Shown here in pieces: positions 2,709 to 19,887 of a stretch of 64,000 nt of DNA. The notes below the pieces were generated by a model that made no database searches, was not told the origin of the DNA, and was given only the letters and a program-made list of their open reading frames with translations. Both the position numbers and the translations under genes were made by a program. Within the stretch, counting starts at the first letter, position 1; the number at the start of each line of letters is the position of its first letter. This stretch comes from Vulcanimicrobiota bacterium (GTDB taxonomy: Bacteria; Vulcanimicrobiota; Vulcanimicrobiia; Eremiobacterales; Eremiobacteraceae), in contig CAWETU010000005.1 in assembly GCA_963812135.1 (NCBI GenBank), positions 192,001-256,000 of the forward strand, written 5' to 3'.

Positions 2709-3152
2709 CTATGATTGGGTTTGCAGAGGCTGCCTTGCTCGATTCTGCAGCATCCGTAGGTACCCGCCGAGCAACGCCGCCGCAAGGCCGAGGACGAAGA
2801 GAATCATGTACTCGCCGAGAGACACTGAGGCCTTGCCGGCGACCACGGCCCAGATACCGGTCGCCACACAAAGCCACGAGGACAAAATTCCGTTGAGCAG
2901 TTCGTCGTGCTTAGCGATCCAGGCTGCGACGTAGCCGCCGATCACGGACCCGGCAAAGCCGATCGAACCTGATACGACATAGAGACCGAGATTCGAGTGG
3001 ATGGCTGCGACATAGGCCACCTGCATGTTCGCGGCGTGGACCAGGTCGTATCGAGTAAGCATATAGATCGCGAATGGCAACGACAAGATGTTCGTGGCGA
3101 CAATGTCGACGATGCCGCCCACGAAGACTCCGAGGAGCGAAACCTTCTTCAC
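2709..3152 (-). CDS. Hypothetical membrane protein (about 4 TM)
   Basis: Hydrophobic ORF; GTG start chosen to avoid overlap with the hemerythrin gene. Confidence 0.65.
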   Translation of the reverse strand: MKKVSLLGVFVGGIVDIVATNILSLPFAIYMLTRYDLVHAANMQVAYVAAIHSNLGLYVVSGSIGFAGSVIGGYVAAWIAKHDELLNGILSSWLCVATGIWAVVAGKASVSLGEYMILFVLGLAAALLGGYLRMLQNRARQPLQTQS

Positions 3153-3156
3153 GCGT

Positions 3157-3741
3157 CTATCTGCGAAGAGAGCTTTTCGAAATCCTTTGCGGCCTCTGAT
3201 TGGCATCGATCGCAACCGTGCCAGCAGGACGTGCGGCGTTCAAGGGCGCGAGAGCCGACTTTAGTCCCCCTGCGCCGAGCGCGCTAGCCTCCACGTATGC
3301 AAAGGCCCGCTCGAGCTCGGCCTCGTCTTCTGGTGTGAGCTCGTCTTCTGCGGCCTCAAAAATCATGCCATCCTCTTTGGCGATGTGCGCGCGGATGTAC
3401 GACACGTACCCGAGCACAGCGCGTTGGACCGCGCCATCCTGATGAGCGTCAAGCGCTTGTTCCAGGGCGCCGATCTGCGCCCGCCCGTCGACGTGCTCCT
3501 CTGCGAGAAGCGAAGCCATGCCCGCAAGCCGCGGACTGCGCCTCATCATATCGAACAGCGCCTGCTCTTCCTTGCCGTGGTGGTTGGCGTCCGCGTACAC
3601 GCGCACGAACTCAACCGCTGCCCTCAAGAACATGTCGCGCGACGGCCTCACTGTCCGGTCACCGATGACGTCTTCCATGCGCTGGACGACCTGCAAGATG
3701 ACTTGGTGCTCGTCGCGCAGCTGATCGAGCGCGCCGCTCAT
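3157..3741 (-). CDS. Hemerythrin domain protein
   Basis: EH...HHGKEE..LF...EH...HIAKEDGMIF iron-ligand pattern; ATG overlaps the upstream stop (ATGA). Confidence 0.88.
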   Translation of the reverse strand: MSGALDQLRDEHQVILQVVQRMEDVIGDRTVRPSRDMFLRAAVEFVRVYADANHHGKEEQALFDMMRRSPRLAGMASLLAEEHVDGRAQIGALEQALDAHQDGAVQRAVLGYVSYIRAHIAKEDGMIFEAAEDELTPEDEAELERAFAYVEASALGAGGLKSALAPLNAARPAGTVAIDANQRPQRISKSSLRR

Positions 3742-4529
3742 GCCGCAGCCTTCTCGAGCCGTCGCTTCGCCAGCAGCGCAGCGCCCAGCGCGTTGGCGAT
3801 CTCGGGTTCCTCGGGCACGTTCAATTCCTGACCAAGAGCCTCGACAAGCGCTTTGACCATGCCGCGCTGGCGTGCCATGCCACCGACGAGCGTGATCTCG
3901 GGCTCCACCCCGACACGCTTGAGCAATGCGACGGCGCGCTCGGCGAGCGAATTGTGGATTCCGCGCACGATGTCTTCGACCGAGCGACCCTGGCTCACGT
4001 GGTTGATGATCTCTGACTCGGCGAGCACTGCGCAGATGCTGGAGATAGTCACTGGGTCCTTCCCCCCAAGGCCCAGTTCGCCCGCATCTTCGAGATCGAT
4101 CTCGAGGTAGCGCGAGGCGCGCTCGACAAAACCGCCCGCACCCGCCGCGCATTTGTCGTTGGTCTTGAACTCTTTCACGCGACCGGCCGCGTCCACACGC
4201 ACGGCCCGCGAGCTCTGCGAACCGATGTCGATGACGCAGCGCGTGTTCGGGAACAGATGCGCTGCACCGAACGCGCCGGCGGTGATGTCGGTGACTTGCG
4301 TGTCGCGCTCCAGAAAGCTGGCCCGTCCGAACCCGGTTGTGATGACGTAATCGACATCAGCGCGTGACGCGCCCAGTCCATCTAGCGCCGCCTGGAGCGC
4401 GTTCTCAACCAGATCCTCGAAGGGCGGCCGAGTGCGCGCGATGTGCGAGCCGCGCAGCGTGCCGTCGCGTCCGATGAGCGCCACTTTCGTCGCGCGCGCT
4501 CCGATGTCGATGCCGGCGATGAAACCCAT
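3738..4529 (-). CDS. bcrD: Benzoyl-CoA reductase subunit D-like ASKHA ATPase (activase)
   Basis: GIDIG, NDKCAAGAG, SSICAVLAESEIIN; RBS AAGGAG; operon context. Confidence 0.8.
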   Translation of the reverse strand: MGFIAGIDIGARATKVALIGRDGTLRGSHIARTRPPFEDLVENALQAALDGLGASRADVDYVITTGFGRASFLERDTQVTDITAGAFGAAHLFPNTRCVIDIGSQSSRAVRVDAAGRVKEFKTNDKCAAGAGGFVERASRYLEIDLEDAGELGLGGKDPVTISSICAVLAESEIINHVSQGRSVEDIVRGIHNSLAERAVALLKRVGVEPEITLVGGMARQRGMVKALVEALGQELNVPEEPEIANALGAALLAKRRLEKAAA

Positions 4530-4543
4530 GATCGCTCCTTGTC

Positions 4544-5344
4544 CTATGCCGCGCCCGCGGCGGCTTTCGCGAGACCGTGTTCCATTGCGAACACTGCCGC
4601 GCCGATGGCCCCCATGTAGTGCGAGTCGGAGCACACGTTGAGACGCATGCCAAGCCGCTCTTCGAGCGCGCGCACCATGCCGACGTTCAGCGAGACGCCG
4701 CCGGTGAACGTGATCTCCGGCTCCAGCCCGACGCGCCGGACGAGTGCGATGGTGCGTGCCGCGATCGCCCCGTGGATGCCGCCGAGGATGTCGGGCACTT
4801 TCTTGCCTTGCGCGAGGTATGCCATGATGTCGGACTCAACGAACACCGTGCAGACTGTCGAGAGACGGACTGGATTACGCGCCTGGAGCGACAGTTCGCC
4901 GATCGAATCGAGCGGCTGGTTGAGCGCCTCGGCCGCCGTCGCCAGAAAACGCCCCGTGCCCGCCGCGCACTTGTCGTTCATGACGAAATCGAGCACCTCG
5001 CCGTCCAGCACCTTGATCCCCTTGGCGTCCTGCCCGCCCATGTCGATCACCGTCCGCGTTCCCGGGAAAACCGAACATGCGCCCTTCGCGTGACAGCTGA
5101 TCTCAGTGATCTGCAGATCGCCGAACATCACCTTGAAACGGCCGTACCCGGTGCCGACGACGCACAGGATGTCGCTGCGCGACATCCCGCCCGCCTCAAG
5201 CGCCTGTTCGAACGCGCGCTCCGCCGCCCGCGTCACGTTGGACCCGGTGTTGATGAGCGCGCGGGCCGCGATCGCGCGTCGCTCATCCACGATCACGCAC
5301 TTCGTCTGCGTGGATCCGACATCGACTCCGGCTGCGAATGCCAT
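4544..5344 (-). CDS. bcrA: Benzoyl-CoA reductase subunit A-like ASKHA ATPase (activase), short form
   Basis: [58 protein letters not shown]. Confidence 0.72.
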
Positions 5345-5357
5345 GCTCGTCTCCTCC

Positions 5358-6638
5358 TTATGCCGGCGCATGCGTGAGCTTGCGATGGGCGAGCGATTCG
5401 AAGAACGCGTCGATGCGGTTGCGCATCTGCGCCTCCGAGAAATAGCGAGGATCCTCCAGATCCGACTCGACGAGCAGCGTCGACACGCCGCGCTTCGTGA
5501 AATATTCGCGCATGTCGCCCTGGCCCGCTGAGAACAGCCGGCAGCTCTTCACCGAGTGGATCACGAGCGCGTCCGCGTTCCACTCCTCGAGATAACGCTC
5601 GATCTGATCGTAGCGCTGCAAGAAATTGCGGTTGGTGAGGTTCCATTGCAGCAGGTGCTCGGCTATGCTTTCCAGCGGCCGGTCAGGGTCGTGAACGAAG
5701 CCGAATTCCCACAGTCCGCCGACGGTGGAATATGTGGAGGCCACCGCGACGGCGTTCCAGCGCGCGAACATGTCGCGAAACTGTCGCAAATATGGCCACG
5801 GCGGCGGCCCTTCGATGACGAAGCGGACGTCCTCGCGCGGCAGCGGGCCCTGCCCCGCGTCGGCTTTGGCGGCGTATTCTTCATAGGCGGTTTTGAAGAA
5901 CTCGACGCCCGGCTGCGTGCCGCGCAGGCAGTAGAGCGGCGCCATCATCGTCACGGAATCGAAGTAAGCGTCATAGGGCGAGGGCGCGCGTTTTGTGAGA
6001 TGCTTGATCTTCGACCACAGCTCGCCGGTCTGCGAGGATAGGGAAACCGCTTGGCGCAGTTTGTCCTCGTCGAGGCGGCGGCCGGTGATGCCTTCGCAGA
6101 CCTCGATGAGCTGGCGAAGTTGGCGCATGACGTACTCGATGTCGTCGAGCGTCGGACTGCCGGATCGCGTGCGGATGAACGGGATATCGAGGTGGAACGC
6201 AGGCCGCTTCGTGTATTGCGCGAGATGGTCGAACCAATGCAGGTAGACGTTGCATCCGACGTAGTTGCAGAGGAGGAGATCCGGTTCGGGGATCGTCGCG
6301 AACGGCGTCTTGCGCCCTGAGAAATACAGGCCGATATCGGCTTTGACGTACGCGCAGTTGTCGGTCGAGTAGCCCATGCCTTCGGCCGCCTGGATGTGCC
6401 CCAACGATTGCTTCTTGACCGCGAGCTGCAGCGCGTTCACCTCTGGATAGACCGGTAGGATGTCGAACGCGCGCAGCAGCTCGACCGGGTTGCCGCCGAT
6501 CAGCAGGTAGGCGGCCTTTGCGCCGTGGCCTTCCGACGATGCGGTGAGCTCGCGATAGTACTCCGCCATCAGCTCCTTTTGGAGATGGTGCAGGCGGCCT
6601 TGATAATCAGCGGTTTGCACGGCGGCTGACTCCTTCAT
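5358..6638 (-). CDS. bcrB: Benzoyl-CoA reductase subunit B (2-hydroxyacyl-CoA dehydratase family)
   Basis: [61 protein letters not shown] resemble Thauera BcrB / R. palustris BadE. Confidence 0.85.
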
Positions 6639-7810
6639 GCGAACAGCAGCGATTCCACGAACGTCTCTATTTCGGTCTTGATCTTGTCGAACAGCCACAT
6701 CTTCTCTTCGAACTCGAGGAAGACGTGCGGCACGTGCGCTTCTTGGAGCGCCTTGCGATACAGCACATAGTCGAACAGCGCAGGCTCGCAGAACTTGGCG
6801 GTGAGGACGACGACCGCGTCGGCGCGCTGCGCACGCGCGCGTTCGACCAGCCGCTCGGCCTTCGAATGACCAAGATCGTGCTTGAAGCTCGCGTCGACGC
6901 TGCGCCGCACATAGGCATCGGCCAACCGGGCGAGCGGCCGATCCGCGCCTGCGCCGATGTCTTCCGAAAAGAAACGCCGGCCAAGCAAGAAGTCGTCGTC
7001 AACGATGTAGCAACCAGCGCTCTCGATGGAGGCGATGAGATCGAGCGGCGGCTGCTCGCAGAACGATCCGATCAAAACGATACGGGCACGGTCCTTCGGC
7101 TTGCCGTCACGCTGCGCGAGCTGCTCGAGTGCGGTATCGAGCGTGCGTAAGTGCACGTCCGGCGGGACCACGTGCCCGTAGCGGACGAGCGCGTAGAGCT
7201 CACGCGTGGCGAGCAAGTGCGGCCGCTCACTGCGAAACACGTACAGCGCACGGATCCGCGCGCGGATGGCGTCATACAGCGCGATGCTCGATCGCAAAGC
7301 GTCATCGGACGGAGGCCTGCCGGTGAGCTCGCCCGCCCAGAGCGCGACCCGGGCATACTCTGCGGCGAGATAGTCGACCGCATCCGGAGCGTCGATGCGC
7401 TGCGGGAAGTGGATATAATCGACTTTGGTGTTCGGGAAGTTTCGGGCGTACACGCTGGCGAGGTTCCGGGCAGGGTCGCAGATCGAGTGGAAGACCAGCC
7501 CGTCGAAGTCATCAAGCCGGCCGGTCATGCCCAGTTCGAGCGTGCTCTTGACGATCGAGCAGATGAACGATTGAAAGCGCGCGTCGGCGTGCGCGATCTC
7601 TAACCGGTTGCCGCCGCCGGCCAATCCTACCGGCAGGGCCCCGGCCGCATGGAAGATCTCCACCGGCGAATAGACGGGGAAACAGCCCACGAGCGCCCGG
7701 CCGGGAACTTCGTGTTTCCACGCCTTCGCTTCGGCAAAGTCGAGCGATTCGATCGACTCGACACAGCGCTCGACGGTCTGGTCGAAGGCGGACTCGAGCT
7801 GTACGGCCAT
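6635..7810 (-). CDS. bcrC: Benzoyl-CoA reductase subunit C
   Basis: LDFAEAKAWK, PVYSPVEIFHAAG, QSFIC, SICDPARNL, GSFCEQPP, FCEPAL resemble BcrC/BadD. Confidence 0.85.
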   Translation of the reverse strand: MAVQLESAFDQTVERCVESIESLDFAEAKAWKHEVPGRALVGCFPVYSPVEIFHAAGALPVGLAGGGNRLEIAHADARFQSFICSIVKSTLELGMTGRLDDFDGLVFHSICDPARNLASVYARNFPNTKVDYIHFPQRIDAPDAVDYLAAEYARVALWAGELTGRPPSDDALRSSIALYDAIRARIRALYVFRSERPHLLATRELYALVRYGHVVPPDVHLRTLDTALEQLAQRDGKPKDRARIVLIGSFCEQPPLDLIASIESAGCYIVDDDFLLGRRFFSEDIGAGADRPLARLADAYVRRSVDASFKHDLGHSKAERLVERARAQRADAVVVLTAKFCEPALFDYVLYRKALQEAHVPHVFLEFEEKMWLFDKIKTEIETFVESLLFA

Positions 7811-7822
7811 GTCTCGCGCCTC

Positions 7823-8851
7823 CTACTGCGTCGGGATGATGATATTGCGCAAGCCGCGGCCGCTTCTCAGCTCGTCGAGGCCGGCATTGATCTCGTCTAA
7901 CGTGAAACGGCCGGTGACCAACGCTTCGACCGCGATGACTCCGCGGCGAGCCAGATCGATGATCCGCGGATAGTCGACCGGCCTGCAGCCGAGCGAGCCG
8001 CGCACGTCCATCTCGTTGAACATGAGCTTGGCCGCGGCGAGGGTCAGCTCGCGCTCGGAATAGCCGATGACGACAAGCCGGCCGCCCCGTCGCAAGCTGT
8101 CGAAAGCCGTGCGCATGACCTCAGGGTTTCCGATCGCTTCAAAAGCCACGTCGGCGCCGCCGCCGGTCTCGCGCTTCACGGCTTTGGCGATGGACTCGGT
8201 CTTCGAGGCGTCGATGACCGCAGCCGCGCCGAAACGCATGGCTCGCTCGAGCCGCTCCGCTTGCACGTCGACGGCCCAGACCCGCGCGCCGACGGCGGCC
8301 GCGATCTGCACGACGTTCACGCCGACACCACCGCAGCCGAAGACGACGACGCGCTGCCCGGCTTGCACCTCGCCGCGGTTGACGACCGCATGATATGGCG
8401 TTGATACCGCATCGGCGATGAGGCACGCCTCTTCGAGCGGCAGGTCGGTGGGCAGCGGCAGCGGGTCTTTGGCGGGCACGCGGACGTACTCGGCATATGC
8501 ACCGTCGATATGGTTGCCCGGCATGATGCCGCGCTCGCAGATGTTCTCGCGGCCGCGCCGGCACGCGTCGCATGCGCCGCATGTGAGGAGCGCCGGGATG
8601 AGGACGCGATCGCCCTCGTGCCAGTGCTCGACGCCTTCGCCCACCTGCGCCACGATACCCGATGCTTCGTGCCCCAGCACGAGCGGCGGCTTCTGGAACG
8701 TCGGCACGTCGTGATCGATGTAGTGCAGGTCGGTGTGGCATAGCCCGCATGCGGCGACCTTCACGGTGATCTCGCCGCGGCGTGGCGCCGGCACCGGCCG
8801 CTCCTCTAGCGCGAGCGGTTGGTGCGCGCCGTAGAAGACCGCCGCTCTCAT
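7823..8851 (-). CDS. had: Zn-dependent dehydrogenase, probable 6-hydroxycyclohex-1-ene-1-carbonyl-CoA dehydrogenase
   Basis: CHTDLHY, GHEASG, CxxCxxCx7C, ADAVSTPY, GCGGVG; position in the bcr operon. Confidence 0.78.
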   Translation of the reverse strand: MRAAVFYGAHQPLALEERPVPAPRRGEITVKVAACGLCHTDLHYIDHDVPTFQKPPLVLGHEASGIVAQVGEGVEHWHEGDRVLIPALLTCGACDACRRGRENICERGIMPGNHIDGAYAEYVRVPAKDPLPLPTDLPLEEACLIADAVSTPYHAVVNRGEVQAGQRVVVFGCGGVGVNVVQIAAAVGARVWAVDVQAERLERAMRFGAAAVIDASKTESIAKAVKRETGGGADVAFEAIGNPEVMRTAFDSLRRGGRLVVIGYSERELTLAAAKLMFNEMDVRGSLGCRPVDYPRIIDLARRGVIAVEALVTGRFTLDEINAGLDELRSGRGLRNIIIPTQ

Positions 8852-9681
8852 CGGGCTCTTTCGCGGCGTATCGCCGCGTAGTCAGGCGCGCGCTTTTCGA
8901 CGAACGCCTTCATGCCCTCAGCTGTTTCGCTATGACCGAAATGGAGCGCCAGCCATTCGCGCGCGTGACCGATGGTCGCGTACCAGGCCTGGTCTTTCCA
9001 ATAGTTCACCTGCGTCTGCGTGTAGCTCAAGCAGCCAGGGAATTTGGCGAGCAGCTCGTCGCAGAAATCGCGGACCTCAGCGTCGAGCCGGTCGAACGGG
9101 ACCACGCGATTGACCAGTCCCCACTCGAGGGCTTGCTGCGCGGTGATCGGCCGGCACAGGTACAGCATTTCACGCGCGCGACGGTCGCCGATTATGATCG
9201 GCAGCCACTGCGTGGCCCCGCCCGCCGCAACGCTGCCGACGCGCGCGCCGACTTGCCGGAGCGTGACGTGATCCGCAGCGATCGCCAGGTCGCACGCCAT
9301 GTTCATCTCGTTGCCGCCGCCGACCGCCATGCCGTTGAGGCGCGCGATCGTCGGTTTGCCCATGCCGCGCAGCGTATCGATGCAGTCCTGGAACAGCACC
9401 ATGTATTTCCAGAAGTCCTCGGGCTTGCGCAGGTAGCGCTGTTCGTATTCTTTGACGTCGCCGCCGGTGCAGAACGCGGTGCGACCCGCGCCCGTGAGCA
9501 CGACGACGCCGACCTCGTCATCCCACATCGCGGTGCGCAGCGCCTCATACAGATGACGCAACGTTTCGGTCGTGTACGCGTTGTACGACTCCGGGCGGTT
9601 GAACGTGATCGTCGCGACGCGGTCCGCAACCGCGTAAAGGACGTCGGCGGTCTCGGCCGACGGTTGCGTGAGCAGCTTCAT
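8848..9681 (-). CDS. oah: Crotonase-family ring-opening hydrolase, Oah/BamA-like (short form)
   Basis: AFCTGGDVKEY..RY...P..F.KYM.LF, GGGNEMNMACD, GSVAAGGATQWLP resemble 6-oxocyclohex-1-ene-1-carbonyl-CoA hydrolase. Confidence 0.72.
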   Translation of the reverse strand: MKLLTQPSAETADVLYAVADRVATITFNRPESYNAYTTETLRHLYEALRTAMWDDEVGVVVLTGAGRTAFCTGGDVKEYEQRYLRKPEDFWKYMVLFQDCIDTLRGMGKPTIARLNGMAVGGGNEMNMACDLAIAADHVTLRQVGARVGSVAAGGATQWLPIIIGDRRAREMLYLCRPITAQQALEWGLVNRVVPFDRLDAEVRDFCDELLAKFPGCLSYTQTQVNYWKDQAWYATIGHAREWLALHFGHSETAEGMKAFVEKRAPDYAAIRRERAR

Positions 9682-10439
9682 GGAGACACCTCTTCAACGT
9701 CGAACGAGCGCTGGAAAATGGGCTTGCGCCGTTCGAGAAACGCATTGATCCCTTCGGCAGCGTCCAGGGTGGGCAGCAAATCCCGCAGATAGATATGCAG
9801 CGCGTCTTCCGTGGCGGCGGCGCCGAGTGCGCGTTTGCAACAACGCAGCGCATCGGCGGAGAGCGCGAGCAGGGCGTCACACAATGTTTGCGCAGCCTCA
9901 GCAAGCCGCTCGGCCGGCACCGCCTCGCAAACGATGCCCCATAGCTCGGCCGTTGCAGCATCGATGGGACGTCCGGTAAAGATGAGTTCGGCGGCGCGGC
10001 GCTCCCCGATGACCTGAGCCAGCCGTCCGCACGCGATCGGCGGTAGAGCGGCGAGCTTGATCTCAGGCAGCGAGAACGTCGCTCGATGCGAGCAGACGGC
10101 TAGATCGCAGAGCAACACCAACTCGAAGCCGCCGCCGATGGCCGGCGCGCCGACCTTCGCAACGGTGACCGGAGCCGCCACCTCGAAAGCGGCCGCCATG
10201 TCCCCGACGGCATTCAACATCGCGGGCGCGCGGTCGGGCAGATGGTCGGCGATCTCCATGCCCGCGCAGAAGGCGCGTTCGCCCTCGGCCTCGAGCAGTA
10301 CGACGGCGCAATCGTCCAGCTGACGGATTGCCTGGTCGAGGCTTCGCACGTCAGCGATATCGAGCACGTTGAGCGGACCGGCGTGCAGCGTGATCCGGCC
10401 CAAATCGCCCTCGCGTTTGACGGCAATACGATCGCTCAT
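9678..10439 (-). CDS. dch: Enoyl-CoA hydratase, probable cyclohexa-1,5-diene-1-carbonyl-CoA hydratase
   Basis: PLNVLD, DHLP, GGGFEL, PEIKL, YLRDLLPTLDAAEGINAFLERR; operon context. Confidence 0.72.
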   Translation of the reverse strand: MSDRIAVKREGDLGRITLHAGPLNVLDIADVRSLDQAIRQLDDCAVVLLEAEGERAFCAGMEIADHLPDRAPAMLNAVGDMAAAFEVAAPVTVAKVGAPAIGGGFELVLLCDLAVCSHRATFSLPEIKLAALPPIACGRLAQVIGERRAAELIFTGRPIDAATAELWGIVCEAVPAERLAEAAQTLCDALLALSADALRCCKRALGAAATEDALHIYLRDLLPTLDAAEGINAFLERRKPIFQRSFDVEEVSP

Positions 10440-11035
10440 GCGACGACCTCCGTCGCACGCGGCGACGTGATGATGCCGCGCATGAACAGGTCGCACATCT
10501 GACCGGCGATTCCGGCGACATCTGCACTCCCATCAGCGCGATGCCACATGGGAGTCCAGTTCATCATCCCGAAGAGCGCGGCGGTCGCCACGCGTGATGA
10601 GACGGAGGACGGCTGCTCCTGCGCGACCGCGATGACGAGATCCGATGCGCGGGCGAAGTAGCGGCGTCGCCGCTCCTGAATAGCGCCACGGGCCGGGCCT
10701 TCAAGTGAATCTATGCCCCAGAGCAAAACGCGGAACGCTGAGGGGTGCTCGAACACAAAACGCAGGTGGCCGCGAACGAAGGCGCGCAGCTTCGCCTCTG
10801 GCGTCGACGGTGACGCGATCGAGCGATCGAGCGATTCGCTCAATGCGACGAACGCGCGCGTGCAGATCAGTTCGAGGGCGTGCTGCTTGCTGGGGAGATA
10901 GTAATAGAGTCCCGCGATGCTCATGTGGGCGGCTCGCGCGATGTCGCGCATGCTCGCGCCGCCATACCCTCTTCGTGCGAACACCGCCTCGGCGGCATCG
11001 AGCGCCACGCTTAGTCGCCGATCAAATCCCGTCAT
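10436..11035 (-). CDS. TetR/AcrR family regulator (KstR2/PaaR-like C-terminus)
   Basis: N-terminal HTH (ASMRDIA...GLYYY); GMMNWTPMW C-terminal motif. Confidence 0.9.
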   Translation of the reverse strand: MTGFDRRLSVALDAAEAVFARRGYGGASMRDIARAAHMSIAGLYYYLPSKQHALELICTRAFVALSESLDRSIASPSTPEAKLRAFVRGHLRFVFEHPSAFRVLLWGIDSLEGPARGAIQERRRRYFARASDLVIAVAQEQPSSVSSRVATAALFGMMNWTPMWHRADGSADVAGIAGQMCDLFMRGIITSPRATEVVA

Positions 11036-11052: not shown

Positions 11053-11072
11053 GTTCGAGCGTTCGTTCGAAC
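11053..11072. promoter_or_regulatory. Imperfect inverted repeat, candidate TetR operator
   Basis: GTTCGAGCG-TT-CGTTCGAAC directly downstream of the predicted -10 box. Confidence 0.55.
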
Positions 11073-11124: not shown

Positions 11125-11784
11125 CTAATGCAGATGCACTAGGCCGCTCTTGAGCGCCAGCACAACCGCTTCGACGCGCGTGTGGACGCCGAGCTTGGGC
11201 AAGATGTTCTGGACGTGGTTTCGCACGGTGCTGCGCGAAAGGTTGAGCCGCTGGGCGATGTCGTCAGTGCCCACCCCGGCTGCGAGCAGCCGGAGCACCT
11301 CGATCTCCCGACGCGACAGCGTCTCGTTGATGTGGCGCAGCGCGGCGTCGTCGGCGCGTCGCTCCGGGGCCGCCTCGGTCAGGCGCCGCGTCACTTCCGC
11401 GGCCACGCCGGCGAGATGCTTCGCAGACACGCTTTCGGTAAGCACGTGCACGGCGAGCGGCCGCTCGTCCTCGATGGTGACCGTCGTGACGTCCAGCCAA
11501 ACGTCCGACCCGTCTGGGCGGCGGGCAACCATCTCAAAGCGACGCGGTGCCGTCCCTTGCCGGCATAGCGCGACGACCGCGCAATCCGGACCGCACAAAG
11601 GTGCGCCCGCAGGCGTCAAGCCGTGCATCACCTCATGGCAGTGCCTGCCCACGGCTTCTCCAGCTGGCCGACCGAGAAGACGTTCCGCCGCATCGTTCCA
11701 CGACACGACGATACCCGCTTCGTCGATCGCGACGGTCGCCTCGGGGCTGGCGCCTAGCTTCACGCGCATGCGAGCCTGTGCCAC
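11125..11784 (-). CDS. PAS domain + LuxR HTH transcriptional regulator
   Basis: IVVSWNDAAERLLG PAS motif; LSRREIEVLRLLAAG...STVRNHVQNILPKLGV LuxR HTH. Confidence 0.88.
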   Translation of the reverse strand: MAQARMRVKLGASPEATVAIDEAGIVVSWNDAAERLLGRPAGEAVGRHCHEVMHGLTPAGAPLCGPDCAVVALCRQGTAPRRFEMVARRPDGSDVWLDVTTVTIEDERPLAVHVLTESVSAKHLAGVAAEVTRRLTEAAPERRADDAALRHINETLSRREIEVLRLLAAGVGTDDIAQRLNLSRSTVRNHVQNILPKLGVHTRVEAVVLALKSGLVHLH

Positions 11785-11791
11785 TCCCTCT

Positions 11792-12250
11792 TCAAAGATA
11801 GTGGAGCACCAGCATTTCGGCCACGCACGCTGGTTTCACTTCACTTTCGCGCTCGACCGTCGCGAGAATCCGCACGCGCACACCGCGGGGCACTTCGGCG
11901 ACCTCCACGAGTTTGAACGTGACGCGCAGGCGAGACGGGATCAGCACAGGCGCGGGAAAGCGTACACGCTCGAGGCCGTAGATCACGGCAGAAGTGAAAC
12001 CTTCGACCTGCGCGACGGAATGCCAAAACTGCGGAATGAGCGAGAGCGTGAGTAGACCGTGCGCGACGGTGCTGCCGAAGGGACTCATCTTCGCTCGGCC
12101 CGTGTCGACGTGGATCCATTGGGTGTCGCCCGTCGCACGGGCGAAGTCGTCAACGCGGCGCTGATCGATCCCGAGCCACTCACTGGGCGCGAGCGATTGC
12201 CCCGCGAGCGCCTTGAACCCCTCAACGCCGCGAATCGTCGTCACGGGCAC
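11792..12250 (-). CDS. MaoC family (R)-specific enoyl-CoA hydratase/dehydratase
   Basis: FARATGDTQWIHVD, AHGLLTLSL, YGLERVRFPAPV; start may be the GTG at 12244. Confidence 0.9.
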   Translation of the reverse strand: MPVTTIRGVEGFKALAGQSLAPSEWLGIDQRRVDDFARATGDTQWIHVDTGRAKMSPFGSTVAHGLLTLSLIPQFWHSVAQVEGFTSAVIYGLERVRFPAPVLIPSRLRVTFKLVEVAEVPRGVRVRILATVERESEVKPACVAEMLVLHYL

Positions 12251-14503: not shown

Positions 14504-15340
14504 CTAGTGGCGCGCCGTGAGCACGAACCGTTCAATCGCCAACATTGTCGGATCGCCCGGGCTGCTCAAGCCCTCGATGATGTCCCAGTGCGAGCGGTCG
14601 GCAGGCTCGAGATCCTGGACCGAGTCACCCGCCGCTTTGAGCTGGTCGTAGAGCTGGCGCGCGATGGCTTCGGGTGCCATCGTGTCGAGCCGGCCATGGA
14701 TCACAAGAGACGGCGGCTCGTGACCGCGCAGTCGCGGCTGGATATCGAAACGCCACCATTGCGTGCGGTCAGCGCCGAACGCGGGATCGTAAATGCCTTG
14801 ATAACGCGGATCGAGCGCGCTGACGTCGCTCGATGGATTGATGCCGACGGGCGCGATCGCGACGATGCCGGCGATGTGCGTGCGTGCGACAAACCCGTTG
14901 ACGATAGCGAACCACGCGAGCTGCGCGCCCGCTGAGTGGCCCACGAGGAACGTGCGCGCCGGATCGAATCCGAAATCGCTCGCGCGTCCGGCAAGCCAAC
15001 GTATCGCCGCTGCCACCTTCTCTGCCTGTTGCGCCGCGGGTGTCTGCGGCGCGAGCGGATAGTTGACGATCGCGGCGGCGATCCCACAGCGTGCGAACGC
15101 CCGCCCAAGCTTTTCGTAGTCGCTCTTGTTGCCGCCGACCCATGCGCCGCCGTGGATGTAGATCACAAGCGGACCGCCGCGCGCGCCGTGCGGCAAATAC
15201 AGGTCGAGCGCTTCGAATTCTCGGTCGTCGCCGTATGCGTGGCTCGCCGCGTCGACCTGGTACGCCGCGTTCGGACAAGGCGATGAAGCCGGACCGCTAC
15301 CGATGGCCATCGCGGCGATCCACAGCCACGCCGCGATCAC
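14504..15340 (-). CDS. Alpha/beta hydrolase (HSL-like esterase)
   Basis: HGGAW, GHSAG nucleophile, HGRLD, SH catalytic His. Confidence 0.88.
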   Translation of the reverse strand: MIAAWLWIAAMAIGSGPASSPCPNAAYQVDAASHAYGDDREFEALDLYLPHGARGGPLVIYIHGGAWVGGNKSDYEKLGRAFARCGIAAAIVNYPLAPQTPAAQQAEKVAAAIRWLAGRASDFGFDPARTFLVGHSAGAQLAWFAIVNGFVARTHIAGIVAIAPVGINPSSDVSALDPRYQGIYDPAFGADRTQWWRFDIQPRLRGHEPPSLVIHGRLDTMAPEAIARQLYDQLKAAGDSVQDLEPADRSHWDIIEGLSSPGDPTMLAIERFVLTARH

Positions 15341-16203
15341 GCGCCCGAGACGAAGTGCGCGATCGCCGTCAGCACCGGATCATCCGGATCGCGCGTCATG
15401 TCGACGAGCACACCGCTATAGTCGTGACCGTCAGGCTGGAGGTAGGTCACGTTGTCGTGCGCGCGCGTGAGGTCCGCGACCAGCGCTTGCGACGCGGCAG
15501 CGCTTGAGAGATAGTCGTCCACGCCATGCACCACGAGGAAGCGCGGTTCGCCGCCCTTGAGGAATTGATTGCAGTCGTATTGCTTCCATTGCGAGGGATC
15601 GGCCCCGAACGCCATCGCGTATGAGCGGTAACGCGGATCTGACGGCGCGGCGGCGGCTTGCGACGGCTCGTAGCCCTCGCCTTCAAGCGCGATGACGCCG
15701 GCTATTCCTCCGGCGGGTACTCCGGCTCCCGCCAGGAGCTTTTGATCGACCGCCGCGAGCGTCGCGAGCTGCGCACCGGCGCCGTGGCCCATCACGAATA
15801 CCTTGGTGCGCGCATAGCCTTTTGCGGCCGCTTTGTCGAGCACCCATTTGACAGCTTTGTCGATGTCCGCGGCCTCCGCGTCAGCGCGCGCTTGCGGCGA
15901 GAGCGGATAGTTCAGCGCGACAAACGCGATGCCGCACGCTGCGAACGTCTCGCCGAGCGTGCGATATTGCGACTTGTCGCCGCGCGTCCATCCGCCGCCG
16001 TGCACGAACAGGATCACGGGCTCGTTGCTCGTCGTCGCCGGCAGGTAGGCGTCCAAGGCCTCGAAGTTGGTGTCTGCGCCGTACACCGCGCTCGAGGTCT
16101 GCACCGCGTGCGCGGGCGTCGGGCATGGCGCTGCGCCGACGCGCGTCGCGGTCATCCCCACGACGCCTGCTGCGACGCATACGACGATACCGACATATCT
16201 CAT
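15337..16203 (-). CDS. Alpha/beta hydrolase fold protein lacking the catalytic Ser
   Basis: HGGGW present, but GHGAG replaces GxSxG. Confidence 0.85.
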   Translation of the reverse strand: MRYVGIVVCVAAGVVGMTATRVGAAPCPTPAHAVQTSSAVYGADTNFEALDAYLPATTSNEPVILFVHGGGWTRGDKSQYRTLGETFAACGIAFVALNYPLSPQARADAEAADIDKAVKWVLDKAAAKGYARTKVFVMGHGAGAQLATLAAVDQKLLAGAGVPAGGIAGVIALEGEGYEPSQAAAAPSDPRYRSYAMAFGADPSQWKQYDCNQFLKGGEPRFLVVHGVDDYLSSAAASQALVADLTRAHDNVTYLQPDGHDYSGVLVDMTRDPDDPVLTAIAHFVSGA

Positions 16204-17420: not shown

Positions 17421-18217
17421 GGGGTGCGCTTTGGCCAGCGCGGTTTGCGCTTGTCGAGGAACGCTCTGATGCCTTCGTTCGCGTCGGCCATGAGCGCGTT
17501 GAACGTCATGATCTCCTTGGTGTAGGCGTATGCCTTGCGCTCCGACATATCGATCTGGCGATAGAATGCTTCCTTGCCGATCGCCACGACGTTCGGGCTC
17601 GCATCGGCGACGGCCAGAGCGAGTTCCCGCACCGCGTCCTCGAGCTGAGCGGTGGGCACGGCCTTGTTGATGAGCCCTTGCGCGAGCGCTTCCGATGCGG
17701 GGATCGGCTCGCCGGTGAGCAGCATCTCCATCGCCTTCTTGCGCCCGATGGCGCGCGTGAGCGGCACCATTGGCGTCGAGCAGAACAATCCGATCTTGAC
17801 GCCGGGAGTGGCGAACCACGCGGTGTCCGCTGCGACCGCGAGATCGCACGTCGCGACCAGCTGGCAGCCGGCCGCGGTCGCAGGTCCCTGCACTTGCGCG
17901 ATGACCGGTTGCGGGATCTCGTGGATCGTCTCCATGAGCTCGACGCACAGATCGAAGATGCGCTTGTACTCGATGACCGTGCGGTTGACGAGTTCGCTCA
18001 AGTCGTGTCCGGATGAGAAGATGGTGCCGTTGGCTCGCAGGACCACGGCTTTGATATCGAGATTCTTGCTGACTTCGCGCAGCGCCATGACCAGCTGCAG
18101 CATCAGCGCTTCGGACAGGGCATTGCGCTTTTTCGGCCGGTTTAGCGTGATGTACGCGAACTCGCCGTCAAGCTCGAGCAGGACGTCGGCGGTCGGATTG
18201 GTCAGCATCGTCGCCAT
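17417..18217 (-). CDS. Enoyl-CoA hydratase (ECHDC3-like)
   Basis: FSSGHDL, ATAAGCQLVATCDL, TPGVKIGLFCSTP. Confidence 0.9.
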   Translation of the reverse strand: MATMLTNPTADVLLELDGEFAYITLNRPKKRNALSEALMLQLVMALREVSKNLDIKAVVLRANGTIFSSGHDLSELVNRTVIEYKRIFDLCVELMETIHEIPQPVIAQVQGPATAAGCQLVATCDLAVAADTAWFATPGVKIGLFCSTPMVPLTRAIGRKKAMEMLLTGEPIPASEALAQGLINKAVPTAQLEDAVRELALAVADASPNVVAIGKEAFYRQIDMSERKAYAYTKEIMTFNALMADANEGIRAFLDKRKPRWPKRTP

Positions 18218-19887
18218 CAGTTGATACGCTTCTCCCGGCCGGCCCATTCCTTGTCGCGCAGCTTGAACTTTTGGACCTTGCCCGTCGACGTCTTCGGCAG
18301 CGGTCCGAACTCCACCGTTTTCGGGGCTTTGAAATGCGCGATCTTCTCGCGACAAAACGCGATGATATCTTCTGAGGTGGCCTTCGCGCCTGGCTTGAGC
18401 GTCACGAATGCCTTTGGAACTTCGCCCCATTTCTCGTCCGGCACGCCGACGACGGCGGCCTCGAGCACCGCGGGGTGGGCGTAGACGGCGCGCTCGACTT
18501 CGATCGTCGAGATGTTCTCGCCACCGCTGATGATGATGTCCTTGGCGCGATCGCGCAGCTCGATGTAGCCGTCAGGATGCATGACGCCGAGGTCGCCCGA
18601 GTGGAACCAGCCGCCGCGAAACGCTTTGTCGGTCGCCGCCTGATCGTTGAAGTAGCCCTTCATGACATTGTTGCCGCGCATGACAACTTCGCCCATGGTC
18701 GACGCGTCAGCGGGCACATCGTTCATCTGGTCGTCCACGACGCGCAATTCGGGCGCGTGGATGAATCCCACGCCTTGGCGCGCCTTGAGCCGCGAACGTT
18801 CTTCGGAATCGCGGTCGTCCCACTTGCTCTGCCACTCGCTCACCGTATGCGGTCCGTACGTCTCCGTCAGGCCGTAGGCGTGGGTGAGGGTGGCTCCCAT
18901 GGACTCGATGCGCGCGATGACAGTCGGCGGCGGAGGTGCGCCCGCAGTCACGATGCGCAACTGCCGCGGGAACTTGTAATCTTTGCTCGGCGGTTCGTTG
19001 GCGATCATGACCAAGACAGTCGGCGCGCCGCACAGATGCGTCACGCCTTCACGCTCGATCAGCTCGAAGATCGCCTTCGCCTCGACCTTCGGCAGCGCGA
19101 TGTGGCGCGCACCGGCCGCCGTCACCGCCCACGTGTAACACCAGCCGTTGCAGTGGAACATCGGCAGCGTCCATAGATAGACGCTTTGTCCGGTGAGCCC
19201 GGCGTGATAGACCTCGCCAAGCGCGTTGAGGTAGGCACCGCGGTGCGTGTACATGACGCCTTTGGGCCGGCCGGTCGTGCCGCTCGTATAGTTGATGGAG
19301 ATCGGATCGTCTTCGTCATCGATCCCGAGATTGAACGGTTCGGGACTACCGCGCGAGATGAACTCCTCATACGTCGCGTTGGAGGGTCGAATAAATTCGA
19401 CCCCTGCGTTGGCCGGTTCGTGGCCGACCCAAATCACGTGCTCGACGTTGGACGCTGCGAGCCCCGGAGCGATGAGCGGCGCGAAATCCGGGTGCGCAAT
19501 GATCGCCTTCGCACCGCAATGCTGGAGGATATAGCCGATCTCATCCGCGCTCAGGCGGATATTGATGGCGACGAGCACCGCGCCGATCTGCGGCACCCCG
19601 AAATGCGCTTCCAGCGCCTCGTCCGAATTGTAGGCGAGCAACGCGACGCGGTCGCCCTTTTCGATGCCGGCGGCGCGCAGCGCGCTGGCCAGCGCATACA
19701 CGCGTCCGCCGACCTGCCCATATGTGTAACGGCGCGCGCCGTCCACCATGCCGTCCTTGTCCGCGAAGACGTGAGCGCTGCGGTCGATGAACGCCAGCGG
19801 CGACAGCAGCGACCGGTTGACGGCCATACCATCCCACTGGTCACGGGACCAGAGCTTTTGAAACGTCGGTCGATCCAGCCCTAACAT
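18217..19887 (-). CDS. Acyl-CoA synthetase (AMP-binding family)
   Basis: YTSGTTGRPKG, PMFHCNGW, YGLTET, FHSGDLG, KTSTGK. Confidence 0.92.
   Translation of the reverse strand: MLGLDRPTFQKLWSRDQWDGMAVNRSLLSPLAFIDRSAHVFADKDGMVDGARRYTYGQVGGRVYALASALRAAGIEKGDRVALLAYNSDEALEAHFGVPQIGAVLVAINIRLSADEIGYILQHCGAKAIIAHPDFAPLIAPGLAASNVEHVIWVGHEPANAGVEFIRPSNATYEEFISRGSPEPFNLGIDDEDDPISINYTSGTTGRPKGVMYTHRGAYLNALGEVYHAGLTGQSVYLWTLPMFHCNGWCYTWAVTAAGARHIALPKVEAKAIFELIEREGVTHLCGAPTVLVMIANEPPSKDYKFPRQLRIVTAGAPPPPTVIARIESMGATLTHAYGLTETYGPHTVSEWQSKWDDRDSEERSRLKARQGVGFIHAPELRVVDDQMNDVPADASTMGEVVMRGNNVMKGYFNDQAATDKAFRGGWFHSGDLGVMHPDGYIELRDRAKDIIISGGENISTIEVERAVYAHPAVLEAAVVGVPDEKWGEVPKAFVTLKPGAKATSEDIIAFCREKIAHFKAPKTVEFGPLPKTSTGKVQKFKLRDKEWAGREKRIN

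Follow-up and report, generated by a model that had tools for sequence, protein, structure and literature searches.

The window analysed here comprises 64,000 nucleotides of contig CAWETU010000005.1 from a genome of the Eremiobacterota (Vulcanimicrobiota), and it carries on its minus strand an operon that we consider likely to encode an ATP-dependent class I aryl-CoA reductase together with a trio of ring-processing enzymes, regulators and a hemerythrin-like protein. Nine genes follow one another from 11035 to 3157 in the order TetR, two crotonase-family enzymes (ECH1 and ECH2), a zinc-dependent alcohol dehydrogenase (Zn-ADH), the reductase subunits C, B, A and D, and the hemerythrin-like protein. 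ATGA start/stop overlaps couple TetR to ECH1, ECH1 to ECH2, ECH2 to the ADH, C to B and D to the hemerythrin gene, and three gaps of 12, 13 and 14 nt hold the Shine-Dalgarno-like motifs AGGAGG, AAGGAGGAG and AAGGAG. A sequence-only reading of this DNA had given the same nine-gene order on one strand, with five ATGA overlaps and gaps of 12-14 nt, which we could confirm to the base, and the gene families that it named were all found again with Pfam and NCBIfam. The complete order from TetR to hemerythrin recurred in 9 of the 80 related loci that we fetched (L013, L021, L034, L037, L038, L040, L042, L043 and L045), and five further loci of this set carry partial pieces of it; given this recurrence the order is beyond chance, and the operon is real, intact and selected. 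The gene array, its synteny, the family membership of the products, their conserved metal ligands and their clade placement, as described below, are direct observations.

The core of the operon is, by its sequence, a four-subunit class I (ATP-dependent) aryl-CoA reductase whose activity is predicted. The C subunit (6635-7810; 391 amino acids; PF06050, 239 bits) is a BcrC/MbdN-like gamma subunit, the putative electron-transfer Fe-S protein, and the B subunit (5358-6638; 426 amino acids; PF06050, 222 bits) is a BcrB/MbdO-like beta subunit, expected to bind the substrate and to hold the catalytic [4Fe-4S] cluster. They are accompanied by two distinct ATPase genes of family PF01869 (219 and 179 bits), the A subunit (4544-5344; 266 amino acids), a short, MbdQ-like alpha subunit, and the delta subunit D (3738-4529; 263 amino acids). 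For A an alternative start at the ATG at 5371 is possible; 5344 is the start with Shine-Dalgarno spacing. The four genes stand in the order C-B-A-D in 59 of the 80 related loci. In NCBIfam the top models of C, B and D were BcrC (TIGR02263, 323.1 bits, cut-off 421.15), BcrB (TIGR02260, 306 bits, cut-off 486.55) and BcrD (TIGR02261, 164 bits, cut-off 312.85), while HadC, BzdN and DCCP gave 181, 116 and 112 bits with C, and HadB, BzdO and the double-cubane model gave 178, 128 and 65 bits with B. With A the BcrA model TIGR02259 scored 180.7 bits (cut-off 578) and was covered only at its positions 232-432 of 432, that is, its last 201. The models of the BZD type, TIGR03190, TIGR03191 and TIGR03192, were likewise missed (116.2, 127.7 and 158.5 bits against cut-offs of 453.8, 448.6 and 380.2). 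Among solved structures the best matches were MbdN for C (9g87_B, 271.6 bits), MbdO for B (235.9 bits) and, over residues 1-255 of 266, the 269-residue MbdQ for A (349.3 bits), whereas the HadBC structures reached 148 and 154 bits and BzdN/BzdO 106 and 122 bits on the C and B subunits. Subunit D had three close top matches in the PDB, MbdQ (205 bits), HadI (190 bits) and MbdP (189 bits).

Furthermore, the cysteines that would carry the Fe-S clusters are invariant throughout the family. This was observed for C84, C111, C251, C267 and C341 of the C subunit in 75 of 75 members, for C95, C129 and C366 of the B subunit in 67 of 67, and for C126 and C165 of A and C127 and C166 of D in 63 of 63 each; the pairs in A and D are presumably the ligands of the bridging cluster, by analogy with HgdC. 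C251 and C267 are common to the BCR (benzoyl-CoA reductase) type and MbdN and have no Cys counterpart in HadC. In the HMMER alignment, B-subunit C95, C129 and C366 fall at or adjacent to BzdO C95, C128 and C380, and E66 and Y97 align with BzdO E65 and Y97; PMC11971306 describes Cys95, Cys128 and Cys380 of BzdO as the ligands of the active-site [4Fe-4S] cluster, with Glu65 and Tyr97. Two other BzdO positions differ, His131 being Tyr and Gln274 being Pro in the window. The residue at position 43 of the C subunit (codon 7682-7684), beside the Fe-S site, differs from clade to clade: 41 of 75 family members, all Eremiobacterota rows among them, have Cys there, as does HadC; His stands there in the clade resembling 3-methylbenzoyl-CoA reductase (MBR) and in MbdN, and Tyr in the BCR type. 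Counting Cys43, the window's clade has six conserved C-subunit cysteines instead of five, and the switch could mean a different cluster type.

To place these subunits among their relatives we built C-subunit trees with FastTree (139 sequences) and with IQ-TREE (81 sequences; LG+G4, short search), the latter supported by the Shimodaira-Hasegawa-like approximate likelihood-ratio test (SH-aLRT) only; the labels on the trees are based on hidden Markov model (HMM) scores and cut-offs and on PDB scores, not on named reference proteins. Scans of genome contigs brought up almost exclusively MAGs (metagenome-assembled genomes), with no Thauera aromatica, T. chlorobenzoica or Aromatoleum sp. CIB among them, and a plasmid collection yielded distant HAD-like genes only. 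In both trees the reductases part from a HadC-like group with 98-99% support, and the C subunit of the window lies on the reductase side. The claim that the operon encodes a class I ATP-dependent reductase rather than a dehydratase thereby held. Within this side, all sequences over the TIGR02263 cut-off fall into a single clade (support 99-100). The window falls into another clade of 29 rows (support 97), whose members come from Eremiobacterota, Chloroflexota, Acidobacteriota, Binatia, Armatimonadota, Verrucomicrobiota and 'Deltaproteobacteria' metagenome-assembled genomes (MAGs) and whose six Eremiobacterota rows group with a support of 100. This clade is separate from the BCR, MBR-like and BZD types in the trees and is widespread in soil MAGs of many phyla. 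In the C tree its sister is a 15-row MBR-like clade (SH-aLRT 93), which holds short-alpha C-B-A-D clusters of Rhodocyclaceae genomes; one Rhodocyclaceae C subunit of that clade scored 363.3 bits on MbdN and the representative P0136 scored 235.6. The B tree (49 rows) differs, in that the window's clade (17 rows, support 99) pairs with Zixibacteria and the BCR type (SH-aLRT 95) and the MBR-like sequences branch lower, but the root of this tree was set with C paralogues that a very long branch joins to it, and the tree comes with a warning of long-branch joining. By these trees the operon represents a distinct lineage among BCR/MBR-like reductases, and the C and B trees disagree on its sister group.

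A scan with the BcrC model covered 31 of the 74 complete C-subunit open reading frames (ORFs) from the 80 loci, and the cut-off was passed by four of these 31 (L070, L072, L076 and L077, at 478-497 bits), the other 27 scoring 248-358. It was also passed by three of the 50 full-length representatives scanned, out of 150 listed in a search of 1.84 billion proteins. True BCR-type members score 478-497 or 421-640 bits. As a separate observation, short-alpha homologues, 50-58% identical, were noticed in 9 of 301 sampled genomes of the family to which an Aromatoleum MAG belongs, with a second ATPase gene adjoining in eight of the nine; all four of the loci that were fetched (L262-L265, from genomes G122, G200, G052 and G085) show the order C-B-A-D, with a C subunit that reaches 363 bits on MbdN. 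Most other matching genomes in that sample carry the usual long-BcrA type.

The strongest pointer to the function of the reductase is what accompanies it in relatives. Acidobacteriota loci L010, L018 and L019, which fall into the same clade as the window in both trees, carry immediately behind C-B-A-D a canonical Had that scores 438-461 bits against a cut-off of 338.65 and a canonical Oah that scores 544-566 bits against one of 464.45, and L018 and L019 have an extra Dch-like gene at 252-255 bits, just under the cut-off of 292.5. Ring reduction is therefore supported, and this clade, being linked to consumers of cyclohexa-1,5-diene-1-carbonyl-CoA, is most simply read as holding dienoyl-CoA-forming aryl-CoA reductases. 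It follows as well that the trio of the window is a different set. ECH1 (9678-10439; PF00378, 117 bits) is a crotonase-family enoyl-CoA hydratase and a candidate dienoyl/enoyl-CoA hydratase, which reached 94.3 bits on the Dch model TIGR03189 (cut-off 292.5) and scored higher on generic enoyl-CoA hydratase models. Zn-ADH (7823-8851; PF08240 and PF00107) is a medium-chain enzyme and a candidate hydroxyacyl-CoA dehydrogenase; its top NCBIfam model was Had (TIGR03201, 241.6 bits, cut-off 338.65), followed by the model of alcohol dehydrogenases dependent on N,N-dimethyl-4-nitrosoaniline with 238.2 bits. ECH2 (8848-9681; 277 amino acids) is a MenB/BadI-like crotonase and a candidate ring-opening beta-ketoacyl-CoA hydrolase. 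Its top NCBIfam match was BadI (TIGR03210, 214.5 bits, cut-off 467.6, model positions 3-253 of 256), then came MenB with 205.9 bits (TIGR01929 gave 194.3 against 342.7), and the Oah model TIGR03200, which has 360 positions, was matched only in part (190.9 against 464.45 bits). The best PDB matches of ECH2 were MenB enzymes at 181.6 bits. By the curated cut-offs, then, none of the trio is an orthologue of Dch, Had or Oah, and the gene that had been called oah is a MenB/BadI-like crotonase, just as the one called bcrA-like covers only the last 201 of 432 BcrA positions.

The trio is not confined to the Eremiobacterota. A trio of the window's type adjoins the reductase in Chloroflexota, Zixibacteria and Armatimonadota loci, and part of it was seen beside the reductase in one Clostridia-labelled locus and one Ignavibacteriales locus; copies of ECH2, 57-66% identical, stand beside C-B-A-D in ten loci outside the Eremiobacterota group and copies of the ADH, 50-61% identical, beside the reductase in eight. 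This bears on whether ECH2 might simply be the housekeeping MenB of the genome. ECH2 is the genome's top match to both MenB and Oah, yet below both cut-offs, and a search of the whole genome found no other candidate for either and no MenB over the cut-off. ECH2 nevertheless travels with the reductase across several phyla, and because of this we read it as probably operon-specific.

The conserved unit extends past 11035. In relatives it includes a gene for a regulator with PAS (PF00989) and LuxR/GerE (PF00196) domains (11125-11784) and one for a MaoC-like (R)-specific enoyl-CoA hydratase domain protein (11792-12250; PF01575, 81 bits), both on the minus strand in the window. The nine genes at 3157-11035 thus stand as the sequence-only reading had them, but its operon was drawn too short for the unit that is conserved. 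The PAS-LuxR gene, whose product is probably the sensor-regulator of the module, lies upstream of TetR in nine of the nine complete Eremiobacterota loci, and the MaoC gene lies upstream of the operon in L013 and L021 and downstream on the opposite strand in L034, L036-L038, L040, L042, L043 and L045. The first gene of the coupled array encodes the TetR-family repressor (10436-11035; PF00440 and PF17932), whose top NCBIfam matches are acyl-CoA-responsive TetR types, every one of them below its cut-off. Upstream of its start an imperfect palindrome, GTTCGAGCG/CGTTCGAAC, lies at 11053-11072; a scan for promoters and terminators gave counts at or below the shuffle expectation. When 14 flank proteins of the window beyond the module were searched in the Eremiobacterota loci, none was matched.

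The last gene of the array encodes a hemerythrin-like di-iron protein of 194 amino acids (3157-3741; PF01814, 61 bits, cut-off 25.3), ATGA-coupled to D. Its candidate metal ligands H54, E58, E59, H83, H119 and E123, as predicted from the alignment, are kept in 18-19 of 19 relatives. When the whole 2.79-Mb genome was searched with an HMM made from the operon-linked copies, the ORF of the operon itself was the single match, and one genomic match gives a chance expectation of 0.006 per 17-kb window. The same HMM matched in 19 of 80 loci of the window's family, in 10 of 79 loci with a BCR-type C subunit and in 15 of 80 betaproteobacterial BCR-type loci, counts which come from loci that differ in length between the sets and have no matched background. 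Hemerythrin-like ORFs were thus also noticed in the flanks of 25 of 159 BCR-type loci (L089-L248) from Acidobacteriota, Planctomycetota, Betaproteobacteria and others, and the link with hemerythrin may be general for class I reductases. By analogy with di-iron proteins it would act in O2 sensing, O2 scavenging or cluster repair.

The host is an uncultured soil bacterium, whose genome is 98% complete, measures 2.79 Mb in 6 contigs and contains a single copy of the operon. Seven of the ten DnaB relatives that were found are 74-93% identical to the window's DnaB, and five of these seven are labelled Vulcanimicrobiota or Eremiobacter-, the remaining two being one 'Candidatus Binatus sp.' and one unidentified; since NCBI taxonomy assigns the phylum to the kingdom Bacillati, the suggestion of a Terrabacteria-like, possibly Eremiobacterota host proved right. 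The contig labelled 'Candidatus Binatus sp.' (L268) has a DnaB 92% identical to that of the window and is probably mis-binned or mislabelled. The genome encodes two heme-copper oxidase subunits I, and a search of it found no NarG over the cut-off and no photosynthetic reaction centre. A 2-oxoacid:ferredoxin oxidoreductase is present and could supply reduced ferredoxin. On another contig than the operon, next to a Liv-type ABC transporter, lies a gene of the benzoate-CoA ligase family (623.5 bits, cut-off 375.25). An aerobic Box pathway was considered for the host and rejected, since BoxB reached 154 of the 499 bits required. Of 401 sampled genomes of the phylum, 24 have a close B orthologue (79-100% identity) and nine a distant type (37-42%). 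In three other genomes of the phylum, G427, G406 and G431, a 40%-identical B homologue shares its contig with a benzoate-CoA ligase family gene 3-13 kb away, and by these matches a second class I-like gene set, linked to a ligase, exists in the phylum as well.

Combining these observations we propose the following course of the reaction. The C and B subunits would form the Fe-S catalytic dimer and A and D an ATPase dimer bridging a [4Fe-4S] cluster; low-potential electrons from ferredoxin would be driven by ATP hydrolysis onto benzoyl-CoA or a close analogue, and its aromaticity broken. ECH1 would then hydrate the reduced ring, Zn-ADH would oxidise the hydroxyl of the hydrated ring, and ECH2 would cleave the beta-keto ring to give a pimelyl-CoA-type product. 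TetR, and probably also the PAS-LuxR protein, would control expression, and the di-iron hemerythrin-like protein may sense or scavenge O2 or keep the O2-labile clusters intact in an oxygen-respiring host. The substrate, the product, the order of the three ring steps and the roles of TetR, the PAS-LuxR protein and hemerythrin are what we infer here from families and gene neighbourhood.

Several observations weigh against this proposal. All seven enzymes score under the equivalog cut-offs of NCBIfam and, because of this, no orthology-based transfer of function is licensed; the claim that the operon consists of BcrABCD with Dch, Had and Oah as orthologues fails on the same scores. Our literature searches found no assayed member of the clade. 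In the PDB the ADH is no closer to Had than to ordinary alcohol dehydrogenases (these reach 197 bits, the Had structures 7qul/7quy 173), and ECH2 is equally near MenB and BadI. As two oxidases were found and NarG and a reaction centre were not, the genome offers no obvious condition under which an O2-sensitive enzyme would work in this oxygen-respiring host. No ferredoxin gene lies within the operon, and no CoA ligase or transferase is conserved beside it in the Eremiobacterota loci. The benzoate-CoA ligase, counted at E <= 1e-110, occurs in 6 of the 24 operon-bearing genomes (25%) and in 103 of 377 operon-free ones (27%), tallies that are descriptive, related genomes not being independent; without four unpublished-flagged genomes that are ligase-positive and operon-negative (G660, G531, G576 and G692) the latter figure becomes 99 of 373, and the reading is the same. 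In the host genus, six of six other genomes have the ligase and only two of six the operon. Since the ligase does not co-occur with the operon across the 401 genomes, it was rejected as specific support for benzoate as the substrate.

The same evidence allows other readings to be weighed. It is highly improbable in our estimate that the enzyme is not a ring reductase and acts instead as an ATP-activated radical 2-hydroxyacyl-CoA dehydratase or as a different BCR/HAD-family reductase whose CoA ester is non-aromatic. The NCBI pipeline does label the relatives '2-hydroxyacyl-CoA dehydratase', and the catalytic Cys, Glu and Tyr are common to the whole superfamily, but dehydratase models and structures score far lower, the C tree puts the window on the reductase side, two distinct ATPase genes are present, Cys251 and Cys267 are absent from HadC, and the sister operons are linked to canonical Had and Oah. 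A ring reductase acting on another aromatic or heteroaromatic acyl-CoA, for example methyl-, hydroxy- or amino-substituted benzoyl-CoA, with a trio adapted to the substituted ring, we hold to be somewhat unlikely. It would suit the nearest solved enzyme, which is a 3-methylbenzoyl-CoA reductase, a trio that is unlike the canonical enzymes beside the sister reductases, a benzoate-CoA ligase that does not co-occur with the operon, and the tryptophanase/tyrosine phenol-lyase family gene beside the module in L034 and L037; no ligase, decarboxylase or dehydroxylase gene is conserved with the module, however.

The trio could also follow the logic of Rhodopseudomonas, which appears rather doubtful. 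Here the reductase, alone or with a partner, would yield cyclohex-1-ene-1-carbonyl-CoA, ECH1 would act as BadK, Zn-ADH would replace the short-chain dehydrogenase/reductase (SDR) BadH, and ECH2 would act as BadI on 2-ketocyclohexanecarboxyl-CoA to give pimelyl-CoA, whereas a Thauera-like route passes by way of 6-oxocyclohexenoyl-CoA and ends in 3-hydroxypimelyl-CoA. BadI is indeed the top model of ECH2 and is matched over its full length, while the Oah model is matched only in part and a canonical Oah is missing from the whole genome; Chloroflexota relatives, moreover, carry an SDR directly after ECH2. On the other hand, the BadI score is less than half the cut-off and MenB comes nearly equal, the ADH has Had rather than BadH as its top model, and the Acidobacteriota sister operons carry the Had and Oah of the diene route; the BzdNO paper (PMC11971306) argues that its enzyme is barred from reducing the diene any further. 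A bolder version of our proposal takes the system to be an oxygen-buffered ring reductase for microoxic niches, with hemerythrin shielding or repairing the clusters and with the trio forming a third ring-opening route, and this we regard as distinctly unlikely. If it were true, the oxygen-buffered enzyme would enable oxygen-respiring soil bacteria with small genomes, Eremiobacterota for instance, to dearomatise aroyl-CoA, and the route of the trio would be neither that of Thauera nor that of Rhodopseudomonas. Our preferred reading is accordingly still the class I aryl-CoA reductase with its trio of ring-processing enzymes, acting on benzoyl-CoA or a close analogue.

Some further features were noticed around the operon and its relatives. 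In one Eremiobacterota subgroup a gene of the tryptophanase/tyrosine phenol-lyase family lies directly after MaoC (L034:13073-14488 and L037:13079-14500); with NF009709 the copy in L037 reached 685.7 bits, against a cut-off of 285, and with the tyrosine phenol-lyase model 572, against 720.7, and the copy in L034 is known from its Pfam match only. Such a gene beside the module may point to the catabolism of aromatic amino acids. At the other end of the operon a 168-residue hydrophobic ORF (2709-3215, minus strand) shares 59 nt with the 3' end of the hemerythrin gene; it has no family match, is absent from the related loci and is followed by a terminator-like hairpin at 2628-2611. A plus-strand protein (2140-2625) has two treble-clef zinc-finger domains (PF13451 and PF23477) with a glycine-rich linker between them. 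About 6 kb upstream of the operon, the minus-strand region 17432-19887 holds an acyl-CoA synthetase (NF006020, 716.7 bits, cut-off 677) followed by a further crotonase-family ORF, for which the MenB model gave 111 bits; when the related Eremiobacterota loci were searched for the synthetase, no counterpart was found. Two adjacent alpha/beta hydrolases (14504-16203, minus strand) have a BD-FAE domain, at 87 and 92 bits. This domain occurs in bifunctional feruloyl/acetyl-xylan esterases, and enzymes of that sort act on plant cell walls and set aromatic acids free.

Facultative anaerobes use class I benzoyl-CoA reductases as their way into the anaerobic degradation of aromatic compounds. The biochemistry of these reductases is limited to proteobacterial enzymes, according to PMC11971306. 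No paper joining Eremiobacterota and benzoyl-CoA reductase was found in our literature searches, which covered main texts, supplements (where MAG tables could list such genes) lying outside them; the earlier remark that the group is not usually credited with anaerobic dearomatisation agrees with this. One paper that names both Eremiobacterota and benzoyl-CoA deals with them apart from each other. In PMC11704145 benzoyl-CoA and WPS-2 are both mentioned, unrelated to each other, and class I bcrABCD genes are reported there in Acidobacteriota, Zixibacteria and Desulfobacterota MAGs, so that class I genes outside Proteobacteria are not new. With this publication, a clade that is widespread in soil MAGs and a hemerythrin link that occurs elsewhere too, the operon can no longer be presented as an undescribed system; it is a solid example of a widespread branch of a known enzyme class and no new class of system. 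What gives it weight is its place in an uncharacterised branch that uncultured soil phyla often carry. Should this branch prove active, soils would owe some of their turnover of aromatic carbon, from lignin and other sources, to organisms that genome surveys take for aerobes, and the Eremiobacterota would gain a metabolic trait unreported in the literature searched. The coupling to hemerythrin, the trio in place of Had, Oah and Dch, and the Cys/His/Tyr switch in the C subunit offer handles for experiments.

Compared with known systems, the window shares with the 2-hydroxyacyl-CoA dehydratases HadBC with HadI and HgdAB with HgdC (PDB 3o3m, 4eht and 1hux) the fold families PF06050 and PF01869, ATP-driven electron injection and a three-Cys catalytic cluster. 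These systems have a single homodimeric activator, whereas the window has two ATPase genes; HadC is without C251 and C267 and lies on the opposite side of the tree split. Among class I enzymes three types, BCR, MBR and BZD, are named in PMC11971306. With the BZD type (BzdNOPQ of Aromatoleum sp. CIB, PDB 8s02) the window has the superfamily and the reaction class in common, and the cluster cysteines, Glu65 and Tyr97 of BzdO are matched in its B subunit, but scores are low and the Cys pattern of BzdN is unlike C251/C267 of the window.

The MBR (MbdONQP; PDB 9g87, 9gai, 9gal and 9gba), named in the same paper as the enzyme of Thauera chlorobenzoica (PMC11971306), is the best solved match for C, B and A. 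The subunits are alike in size, with 391 and 388 amino acids for C and MbdN, 426 and 445 for B and MbdO, 266 and 269 for A and MbdQ, and 263 and 273 for D and MbdP, and the short alpha subunit is common to MbdQ and A. In the C tree the window's clade nevertheless stands beside the MBR-like clade and not inside it, the window's C subunit scoring 271.6 bits on MbdN against 363 for the Rhodocyclaceae C subunit, and position 43 of C is Cys where MbdN has His. The window's gene order is C-B-A-D, and that of MBR would be O-N-Q-P, as its name implies. MBR is not known to come with canonical lower-pathway genes or with a hemerythrin. The lower pathways of Thauera (Dch/Had/Oah) and of R. palustris (BadK/BadH/BadI) comprise the same three reaction types as those predicted for the window's trio, all of which score below the cut-offs of Dch, Had, Oah and BadI. 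With BCR (BcrCBAD of Thauera aromatica and BadDEFG of Rhodopseudomonas palustris) the window shares the gene order C-B-A-D, the five Cys of C and the three Cys of B; it differs in scoring below all four equivalog cut-offs (323 of 421, 306 of 487, 181 of 578 and 164 of 313 bits for C, B, A and D), in having Cys instead of Tyr at position 43 of C, and in an A subunit of 266 amino acids that matches only the last 201 positions of a BcrA model 432 positions long. As judged from its sequences, the window's lineage thus joins an MBR-like alpha subunit to a BCR-like gene order.

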